Part shown: positions 23,647-25,682 of the stretch, one piece after another
How positions within the stretch are numbered: position 1 is the stretch's first letter
Layout of the letters: every line of letters starts with the position of its first letter
NCBI RefSeq assembly: GCF_046105845.1
Contig: NZ_CP151004.1
DNA length: 64,000 bases
Source of the DNA: Escherichia coli
GTDB taxonomy: Bacteria; Pseudomonadota; Gammaproteobacteria; Enterobacterales; Enterobacteriaceae
Reading direction: 5' to 3' (one strand)
Made by a program: the position numbers and the translations under genes
The notes under the pieces: generated by a model
Database searches by the model: none
What the model was told of the DNA's origin: nothing
What the model saw: the letters and a program-made list of their open reading frames with translations, nothing else

Positions 23647-23747
23647 TCAGAAACAATTTTCCCAAATTATAGAGACGGGGCTAAAGGCAGAAGTATGAAA
23701 TTTCGGGTGAGCCATTTTCGTAGCTCACCCGTTAGCACTATCAGGTA

Positions 23748-24068
23748 TCAGGCGGCTTTCTTGAGGCAGGCGCTCATAAACTTATTACGATCATCACCTT
23801 TCAGAGATTGTTGCGTTGCTTGATTATTACATTCGCGCATCTTTTGCTGCTGTGGCGTCAAACTTTTTTCACCAGGCGCAGACTTGCTGTTCTTCAGGCA
23901 ATCACTCATGTAGGTCTTACGAGCATCCCCTTTCAACGCCTGCGCCGTCGCCTGCTGATTACAGGAGGTCATACGCTGTTGTTGCGGGGTTAAGGTTCTC
24001 TCGGCAGCGCCGACGGTGGTTAAAAAAACCAGACCGAAAAGCAAGGTAACCAGTAATGTTATTTTCAT
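23748..24068 (-). CDS. psiF: Phosphate starvation-inducible protein PsiF
   Basis: ORF 23748..24086; known PsiF starts MKITLLVTLLFGLVFLTTVGA (signal peptide); two internal ~34-aa repeats. Confidence 0.9.
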   Translation of the reverse strand: MKITLLVTLLFGLVFLTTVGAAERTLTPQQQRMTSCNQQATAQALKGDARKTYMSDCLKNSKSAPGEKSLTPQQQKMRECNNQATQQSLKGDDRNKFMSACLKKAA

Positions 24069-24186
24069 AGCACCATCCCTCTTCATGTTTTAACCATGAG
24101 CGTGTGCGCCCGTGATCTGCCATTAAGTCTGGTTGCTAACAGCAAAAAAACCACCCGACAGCGAAAATTCACCGCCGGGCGCGGTT

Positions 24187-25602
24187 TTATTTCAGCCCCA
24201 GAGCGGCTTTCATGGTGTAGAAGAGATCGGTCTGGTCGGTCAGTCCAACGACATTGGCAGCATGTGGGCCATACGCTGCAATACGCAACTGACTGCCGGT
24301 ATGTTCTTGTGAATCCTCTTCGGAGTTCCCGTAACTCATCACCATCACTGCGCCATCTTTTGTATTTAGCGCCTGGGTGAGGCCCGGCGCTTTGGTGTCC
24401 GGCGCGACAATCTGGCTGGCGTGGGCGTGATCAGCGGTGACTATGACCAGCGTGTTGCCATCCTTTTTAGCGAATTCCAACGCCCGTTGTACGGCTTCGT
24501 CGAGATCGACCGTCTCGCCAATTTGCCCACAAGGATTCGCAGCGTGATCCTGTTTATCGATTGATGCACCTTCAACTTGCAGGAAAAAGCCTTTCTCATT
24601 TTTACTCAACAATTCAATGGCTTTGTCGGTCATCTGCGCCAGGGTCGGTACGCTGTCATTACGTTGCGGATTAGGCGTACAGGTAACTGCGGGCTTGTCG
24701 ATATTGCCGTGGTACGTTGCTTTCGGTCCTAGCCAGCGCACTGGCATATTGCCGTCAGCAAACAGTCCTAGCAGGGGTTTTTGCTGGTTCGCTTCCGTCA
24801 CCGCATTTAGCGAGGCAGCATCACTCACCAACTGATAACCACGCGCCTGTGCCTGTTCACGCAGCGTTTTTCCCTGCCATTCACCGGCGGTTGCCGTTTC
24901 AGCAAAGGTTTTTGCGCCGCCGCCAAGCGTAACATCGGCACGAGCGTTAAGCAGCTGTTCGGTAATCGATCCTTTCCCGCCTTTTTCTAGCGTGTTACCC
25001 GTACATTTTTCACTGGTCACGCTCGGACCGTAGCATTTGCGCGAGGTCACATGCGACACCAGCGCAGCGGGCGTAGCATCCTGCAACTCTGCGGTAGAAA
25101 CGTTACCGGTCGCCAGACCTGCGGCTTTTGCCATTTCCAGAATCGTTGGGTGATCTTTTTCGTGAATATCGACGCCCAGCGCGCCGTTATAGGTTTTGAC
25201 ACCAGTTGACCAAGCGGTTGCTGATGCAGCCGAGTCGGTGACGTAGTCCGGTTTGCCGGTTTTTTTATTCAGCGCATAGTGAGTGTATTGCCCGGTAAGC
25301 GGTAATGCATCGATACCTTTAAAAAAGCCGCCCGCACCTTCGGCATAATTGCGTGCAGCAGTAATTTCCGAGTCCCCCATCCCATCGCCAATCAACAAAA
25401 TAATATTTTTGGCAGGTTTATCGCTAAGAGAATCACGCAGAGCAGCGGTCTGATCCCCCGTTAAGCGGCGAGCACCGCCGGGTGCAGTAATATCGCCCTG
25501 AGCAGCCCGGTTTTCCAGAACAGGCATTTCTGGTGTCCGGGCTTTTGTCACAGGGGTAAACAGTAACGGTAAGAGTGCCAGTGCAATAGTGCTTTGTTTC
25601 AC
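24187..25602 (-). CDS. phoA: Alkaline phosphatase PhoA
   Basis: ORF 24187..25644; GTG at 25602 with GGAG Shine-Dalgarno gives [29 protein letters not shown]..., the classic PhoA signal peptide and mature N-terminus. Confidence 0.96.
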
Positions 25603-25664: not shown

Positions 25665-25682
25665 GTGACAGCTTTATGACAG
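25665..25682 (-). promoter_or_regulatory. Pho box of the phoA promoter
   Basis: Minus-strand ctgtcataaagctgtcac, ~60 nt upstream of phoA start; matches the known phoA Pho box apart from one base. Confidence 0.75.

Follow-up and report, generated by a model that had tools for sequence, protein, structure and literature searches.

The psiF gene and its duplicated repeat

The stretch of DNA analyzed here, the window, is a 64,000-nt segment of an Escherichia coli chromosome (contig NZ_CP151004.1 of RefSeq assembly GCF_046105845.1) that includes aroL, yaiI, proC, adrA, psiF, phoA, iraP, and ddlA. We focus on psiF, whose product is one of the few classical E. coli Pho-regulon members without an assigned function or a solved structure. 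The coding sequence, 106 codons plus a stop on the minus strand, agrees exactly with the RefSeq psiF coordinates and translates to MKITLLVTLLFGLVFLTTVGAAERTLTPQQQRMTSCNQQATAQALKGDARKTYMSDCLKNSKSAPGEKSLTPQQQKMRECNNQATQQSLKGDDRNKFMSACLKKAA. The NCBIfam PsiF equivalog NF008560 covers residues 1-106 of 106 with 234.5 bits, against a cut-off of 165, and the allele in the window is 99-100% identical to PsiF sequences in the databases. A 601-nt query across psiF matches 5425 of 5426 complete E. coli genomes, and in each case psiF is annotated between adrA and phoA. Set beside E. coli K-12 PsiF (b0384), PF07769, and NF008560, the window encodes the same protein in the same genomic place, with nothing different. 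We identify the gene as E. coli psiF, which occupies the distal position in the phoA-psiF operon activated by PhoB. The gene, the parts of its mature product, and the upstream gene are placed as follows (AF2, AlphaFold2):

23748..24068, minus strand: psiF coding sequence (open reading frame list, RefSeq, NF008560)
23889..23990, minus strand: PsiF repeat 1, residues 27-60, predicted helix-turn-helix hairpin (PF07769, self-alignment, AF2)
23859..23888, minus strand: linker SKSAPGEKSL, residues 61-70, predicted to be flexible (AF2, variation among homologues)
23757..23858, minus strand: PsiF repeat 2, residues 71-104, predicted helix-turn-helix hairpin (PF07769, self-alignment, AF2)
24187..25602, minus strand: phoA (alkaline phosphatase), upstream gene of the operon (open reading frame list, RefSeq; GTG start checked)

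The initial annotation of this DNA, made from the letters alone, proposed that PsiF is built from two tandem segments of about 34 amino acids, each with two cysteines. The duplication is borne out: residues 27-60 and 71-104 share 22 of 34 identical positions, with an ungapped BLOSUM62 score of 118, and when the halves of the mature protein are aligned locally to each other the score is 131, compared with 21.4±4.4 in 2000 composition-preserving shuffles, none of which reaches it (z ~25). Each repeat does hold two cysteines, C36/C57 and C80/C101, in the same C-x20-C spacing. The word "tandem" applies in part; there are two copies, but they are not strictly head to tail, as they lie 44 residues apart (34 plus the 10-residue linker SKSAPGEKSL, residues 61-70). 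At the DNA level the repeats are identical at 66 of 102 positions (65%), and Tandem Repeats Finder reports no DNA repeat in psiF. For both reasons the repeat is, judged from sequence, an old protein-level duplication and not a recent DNA repeat.

The observation is correct and it is not new, because the repeat is already a named family that the initial annotation missed. The Pfam profile PF07769 (PsiF_repeat, "psiF repeat", 34 positions) matches the protein twice, with an E-value of 8.7e-34 and 115.5 bits against a cut-off of 21; the best stretch aligns residues 27-59 to profile positions 2-34 of 34. The repeat itself is thus textbook-level annotation, and finding it adds nothing. What retains value is that a classical Pho-regulon protein still lacks an assigned function, that its gene is retained independently of phoA, and that its homologues show synteny with rpoN clusters.

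An exhaustive HMMER search of 1.84 billion representatives of 50%-identity clusters returned 1118 family members at E<=1e-3 and 323 at E<=1e-10, so that the family spans more than 1000 such clusters. Named sources are Escherichia, Citrobacter, Salmonella, Enterobacter, Kosakonia, Pseudomonas, Burkholderiales/Burkholderiaceae, and Niveibacterium. We scanned E. coli PsiF and the top 150 family representatives (n=151) with a hidden Markov model of the repeat and found 333 repeats. Most proteins have two (111 of 151) or three (32 of 151), one protein each has four and five, and the 6 with a single repeat look mostly like fragments. In the longer homologues Pfam finds PsiF repeats only and no domain fusions.

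The 333 repeats give the consensus QQx(K/R)MxxCNxxAxxKxLKGxxRKxFMSxCL, and both E. coli repeats carry its signature QQxKMxxCNxxA...G..R..FM..CL with the C-x20-C spacing. The two cysteine columns are 99% and 98% Cys, exactly two cysteines occur in 324 of the 333 repeats, and conservation reaches 90% or more at each of M8, N12, A15, G22, R25, F28, M29, and L33. The linker varies among homologues in both length and sequence. Identity between repeats 1 and 2 within a protein is 0.66; between proteins it is 0.59-0.61 at the same position and 0.60 across positions, and nearest-neighbor assignment is mixed.

Two further observations concern the family. Some PsiF-repeat proteins continue into an additional C-terminal domain, about 55 residues long and holding a Cys pair of its own (P0151, ~235-291, and the C termini of P0207, P0263, and P0261), with the motif CGxDxVVWVNxxSxIYHxxxxxxYGKTKxGAYMCE; it has no Pfam match, and its match to the NCBIfam "sunset domain" NF051437 is weak and below threshold (E 0.016). 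In addition, residues 5-61 of PsiF (window ~23886-24056) weakly match the Cys-rich protein model NCBIfam TIGR04453, "Lepto_8Cys", below its threshold (E 2.4e-4; 21.5 bits, cut-off 34), and the match is also seen in two homologues. This may reflect a distant Leptospira relative, or it may be an effect of the signal peptide and the Cys pattern.

Export, probable disulfides, and predicted fold

The initial annotation also placed PsiF in the periplasm, with disulfides stabilizing the repeats. Both ideas are supported, and the relevant features are these:

24006..24068, minus strand: signal peptide, residues 1-21 (MKITLLVTLLFGLVFLTTVGA), cut A21/A22 (hydrophobic N terminus, intact mass, b50)
23898..23963, minus strand: inferred disulfide 1, Cys36 codon (23961-23963) to Cys57 codon (23898-23900) (conservation, b50)
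23766..23831, minus strand: inferred disulfide 2, Cys80 codon (23829-23831) to Cys101 codon (23766-23768) (y35)

The putative signal peptide ends in a canonical signal peptidase I site (MKITLLVTLLFGLVFLTTVGA|AERT, V at -3 and A at -1, V-G-A|A), as expected of Sec-dependent export, and a published mass fits residues 22-106. That mass comes from native top-down mass spectrometry, which detected PsiF from E. coli colonies (PMC9196203). The electronic supplementary information (ESI) of that study lists four PsiF fragments and, for the intact protein, a monoisotopic mass of 9443.4898 Da, lower by 75.15 Da than that expected for reduced residues 21-106. We recomputed these masses for mature residues 22-106 with disulfides, with the following calculated values and deviations in parts per million (ppm):

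Residues 22-106, two disulfides: 9443.574 Da, -8.9 ppm
b50 (residues 22-71), one disulfide: 5450.655 Da, -3.3 ppm
y35 (residues 72-106), one disulfide: 3992.919 Da, -6.8 and -15.8 ppm
b83, two disulfides: 9283.489 Da, -7.4 ppm

The b50 fragment fixes the N terminus at A22, and its calculated mass, 2.016 Da below the reduced form, equals the "theoretical" value printed in the ESI. Cleavage before Pro72 yields b50 and y35 as a complementary pair that comes apart, each member 2 Da light, which would put one disulfide inside each half and none between the repeats. This disulfide reading is our recomputation and not a claim of the original authors. Together with the 98-99% conserved Cys pair, its fixed spacing, and the hairpins described below, the masses lead us to infer strongly that one intra-repeat disulfide (C-x20-C) staples the two helices of each PsiF repeat.

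Structure prediction, which the initial annotation had suggested as a check, gives a confident helical hairpin for each repeat. AF2, run on a 66-sequence alignment of the PsiF family, returned a mean predicted local distance difference test score (pLDDT) of 84.6, with helices at mature residues 7-21 and 26-42 in repeat 1 (block pLDDT 92-93) and at 51-65 and 70-83 in repeat 2 (89-94). The linker falls below 50 at mature residues 43-45 (block mean 57), and the overall predicted TM-score is 0.46; the mutual orientation of the two hairpins is therefore undefined. Conserved residues are spaced i, i+3/4, i+7 within each helix (8/9, 12, 15/16, and 19 in helix 1; 29, 32/33, and 36/37 in helix 2), and because of this spacing the conserved M, A, L, F, M, and L and the Cys pair would line the helix-helix interface in the predicted model. 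No meaningful relative emerged among solved structures, either by sequence search of the PDB (best E 0.46) or by Foldseek against the PDB (nothing below E 8.5).

Operon control and retention without phoA

The initial annotation described psiF as a Pho-regulon gene cotranscribed with phoA, and published data agree on both counts. Four features bear on the control of psiF:

25665..25682, minus strand: Pho box CTGTCATAAAGCTGTCAC, the PhoB site driving phoA-psiF (13/14 match; PMC10294691)
24142..24181, minus strand: terminator-like hairpin (24152-24181) and U-run in the 118-nt phoA-psiF spacer (13-pair stem, then GTTTTTTTGC; RNAfold -23.0 kcal/mol)
24065..24085, minus strand: psiF Shine-Dalgarno (SD) and start region (UGAAGAGGGAUGGUGCUAUGA; SD/start GAAGAGGGAUGGUGCUAUG), complementary to the small RNA CpxQ (duplex energy, preprint)
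23704..23731, minus strand: hairpin CGGGUGAGC-N10-GCUCACCCG, 3' of the psiF stop and before adrA (RNAfold of 23660-23750, minus strand)

Upstream of phoA, CTGTCATAAAGCTGTCAC matches the two direct repeats of CTGTCAT-N4-CTGTCAT at 13 of 14 positions in 11-bp phase, and nothing at 10/14 or better occurs in the phoA-psiF spacer. Chromatin immunoprecipitation sequencing (ChIP-seq) has shown PhoB binding upstream of phoA-psiF, with PhoB-dependent RNA for all genes of the operon (PMC10294691). It is among seven operons confirmed there by ChIP-seq and RNA-seq in which all genes are positively regulated. In an array study, psiF rose 9.3-fold and phoA 6.1-fold. The spacer holds the terminator-like hairpin, and psiF would therefore be cotranscribed by (partial) read-through, with the terminator probably attenuating psiF relative to phoA. 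The spacer is conserved over its 3' part in Salmonella, Enterobacter, and Kosakonia. Beyond psiF, the hairpin at 23704-23731, whose U-tract is weak, may terminate the operon; our terminator consensus scan missed it, as its loop is 10 nt and the limit was 8 nt.

A second layer of control acts on the messenger. CpxQ, a small RNA of the Cpx pathway, is reported to bind close to the psiF SD and to reduce the level of PsiF protein (bioRxiv 10.1101/2025.09.11.675593). CpxQ nucleotides 10-33 are complementary to psiF positions -17 to +3, with the pairing core AGGGAUGGUG / CACCAUCCCU (CpxQ at 3331-3388 of L011) and a duplex energy of -28.7 kcal/mol, compared with -20.1±3.0 kcal/mol for dinucleotide shuffles, 10 of 1000 of which reach it. 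This duplex is not the best in the window, where stronger chance sites occur, and the computation alone proves nothing; the support is the experiment in the preprint. The element GGATGGTGC(T/A)ATG is conserved in Salmonella, Enterobacter, and Kosakonia.

It is tempting to see PsiF as a dedicated helper of alkaline phosphatase, acting in PhoA folding, disulfide formation, Zn/Mg loading, or substrate delivery. The psiF gene lies directly downstream of phoA and is coregulated with it, both products are periplasmic, PhoA is known to require disulfides and metals, and phoA and psiF stand in one overexpression list for H2O2 resistance. The gene neighborhoods of homologues argue otherwise. We looked up ten genomic contexts singly, a small and biased sample. 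Kosakonia carries phoA in the order iraP-phoA-psiF, and its Pho box matches at 14 of 14 positions (L015 1893-3821). In Salmonella the order is iraP-psiF-adrA and phoA is absent; of the E. coli spacer, only the 3' part remains in the 351-nt gap between iraP and psiF (L012/L013 3650-4321), and no Pho box is found in this gap. Enterobacter hormaechei has the same order, also without phoA (L014 3207-3821). Here the final codons of phoA ("GGGCTGAAATAA") and the terminator remain, and a site resembling a Pho box (11/14) still occupies the ancestral position, so that the region looks like a deletion scar. The presence of psiF without phoA in both genera indicates that phoA was lost while psiF was kept at the same locus.

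Among the non-enteric homologues looked up, in Pseudomonas, Burkholderiaceae-type contigs, and Niveibacterium, psiF-repeat genes never adjoin phoA. In five contigs, a set biased to the top profile matches, the gene lies 3' of hprK on the same strand, in lptB-rpoN-hpf-ptsN-hprK-[psiF]-rapZ clusters. One of the five is from Burkholderiaceae (by the name of a cluster member) and one from Niveibacterium, where cutA-dsbD follows the psiF-repeat gene instead of rapZ. The genes themselves lie as follows:

L003/L004: 5001-5297
L006, L007, and L008: from 4001
L009: 4001-4474

A crude scan with the E. coli consensus found no Pho box above 10/14 upstream of the non-enteric homologues, and we suggest that Pho control belongs to the enteric arrangement. 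Because Salmonella and Enterobacter keep psiF without phoA and other homologues sit in rpoN-ptsN-hprK-rapZ clusters, the contexts argue against a PhoA-specific helper and for a PsiF that is independent of PhoA. PsiF also lacks His and any free-thiol signature for metal handling, and its cysteines appear oxidized. Altogether, we consider a helper role improbable.

Some details of these contexts stand apart. In L008, a 4-nt overlap of hprK and the psiF-repeat gene probably reflects an over-called start, as the cluster members are 96 amino acids long. In Pseudomonas aeruginosa and one other contig, the psiF-repeat gene is near genes for AsmA/DUF748, BamE, MOSC, or glutathione peroxidase proteins. 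A gene for an AsmA/DUF748 envelope protein lies within about 3 kb in both of these otherwise unrelated contexts, P. aeruginosa and a metagenome contig (L001/L002 393-2462; L005 1-2932), a proximity that may be coincidence.

A possible role for PsiF

How might such a protein act? The initial annotation listed its function as unknown, and the psiF mentions that we read in the searchable literature indeed give no mechanistic function. Composition offers one clue. Mature E. coli PsiF has an isoelectric point (pI) of 9.7 and a net charge of +8; among 66 homologues the median pI is 9.6, and 65 of the 66 exceed 8.5. Across the family K, A, and Q dominate and V, I, W, and H are almost absent, and basic positions are conserved.

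In the mechanism we propose, a 106-residue precursor would be exported through a Sec-type signal peptide and cut after A21, as suggested by its sequence and by our re-fit of the published mass. The 85-residue mature protein comprises the two 34-residue PsiF repeats and a linker of about 10 residues that is presumably flexible. Each repeat is predicted to fold alone as an alpha-helical hairpin and very probably carries one C-x20-C disulfide, presumably made by the periplasmic DsbA system. The copy number of 1 to 5 across the family is consistent with autonomous beads on a string. The mature protein, strongly cationic, appears non-enzymatic. In E. coli it would be made at phosphate scarcity and trimmed by CpxQ as an envelope-stress small RNA.

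Given the variable repeat number, the flexible linkers, the uniform basic charge, and the conserved basic positions, we offer as a tentative proposal, at less than even odds, that PsiF is a multivalent cationic binder or shield in the periplasm. It would act electrostatically, without catalysis, on an anionic envelope component or a polyanionic phosphorus compound; candidate ligands are phosphorylated lipid or lipopolysaccharide head groups and a polyanionic organophosphate. For future assignment of function, the most helpful features are the autonomous one-disulfide helical hairpins, the uniform cationic charge, and the independence from phoA; they point to polyanion binding and envelope phenotypes and away from phosphatase-centered roles. 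A broader claim, possible and at present doubtful, is that the "phosphate-starvation" label is a lineage-specific accident. PsiF repeats would then be widespread cationic, disulfide-stapled periplasmic hairpin modules of Gamma- and Betaproteobacteria, ancestrally tied to envelope and regulatory loci and serving envelope charge or homeostasis more than phosphate acquisition, which in enterics ride on the phoA transcript and survive its loss.

We give the account as a whole (identity, two-hairpin architecture, export, and operon, with the cationic-binder role at the lower odds stated above) a probability of roughly 70%. Several points weigh against it. Basic charge alone is weak evidence for polyanion binding, and the psiF mentions that we read report neither a knockout phenotype nor a ligand. 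Only four fragments, with errors of 3-16 ppm, underlie the mass-spectrometric identification, and its disulfide reading is ours. A canonical-looking terminator stands between phoA and psiF and may limit read-through. Finally, in Herbaspirillum psiF shifted together with phoB and phoA, yet upward at high phosphate.

The only functional hint in these mentions is that psiF is among the ASKA overexpression clones that raise H2O2 resistance (PMC8228696). This would suit a sacrificial periplasmic antioxidant or redox buffer in which conserved Met (two per repeat) and Cys scavenge oxidants. The Met at repeat positions 8 and 29 are ~91% and 90% conserved, one homologue adjoins a glutathione peroxidase gene, and another precedes cutA-dsbD. 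However, the helical face that bears the conserved Met also bears Cys, A, F, and L, as expected of a buried core more than of exposed scavengers; the overexpression list is long and psiF was not followed up; and the neighboring genes are single cases. We regard an antioxidant role as unlikely, well behind the binder proposal.

Similarly unlikely is an ATP-independent periplasmic holdase or stress adaptor, of the kind formed by the helical hairpins of CpxP/Spy or by the disulfide-stapled small Tim chaperones. PsiF resembles CpxP and Spy (LTXXQ-motif proteins) in being periplasmic, stress-linked, basic, and built on helical hairpins; these proteins have an LTxxQ motif at helix starts, and LTPQQ occurs in both PsiF repeats. 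They differ in lacking a conserved Cys pair and in forming dimers of single long hairpins, where PsiF has short repeated units. We tried the LTxxQ motif as a sign of homology and rejected it: hhalign gives a probability of 0.3% over 7 aligned columns, the five-residue motif is all that is common, and none of 66 PsiF-family members has an LTXXQ-family Pfam match at E<=10. Other alpha-helical hairpins stapled by disulfides are the plant alpha-hairpinins/vicilin-buried peptides (e.g., PDB 6o3q) and the mitochondrial small Tim proteins (e.g., 3cjh and 7w5z), which are defined by twin CX3C or CX9C motifs with two disulfides per hairpin; PsiF does not have this arrangement.

Less likely still is that the cysteines are metal ligands or cross-links between the repeats, and not one staple per repeat. 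With four cysteines, a small secreted protein has in theory three possible pairings, or might coordinate Zn or Cu, and the AF2 output contains no explicit disulfide information. This alternative is disfavored by the separate b50 and y35 fragments, by homologues with 1, 3, or 5 repeats that keep exactly two Cys per repeat, and by an intact mass without a metal adduct. As for the repeat itself, a chance or low-complexity (Gln-rich) likeness, to which the richness of both segments in Q, K, and A and the empty Tandem Repeats Finder result might point, is refuted by the shuffles, by the curated Pfam model that matches both copies, and by the recurrence of the PsiF repeat 1 to 5 times in hundreds of homologues.

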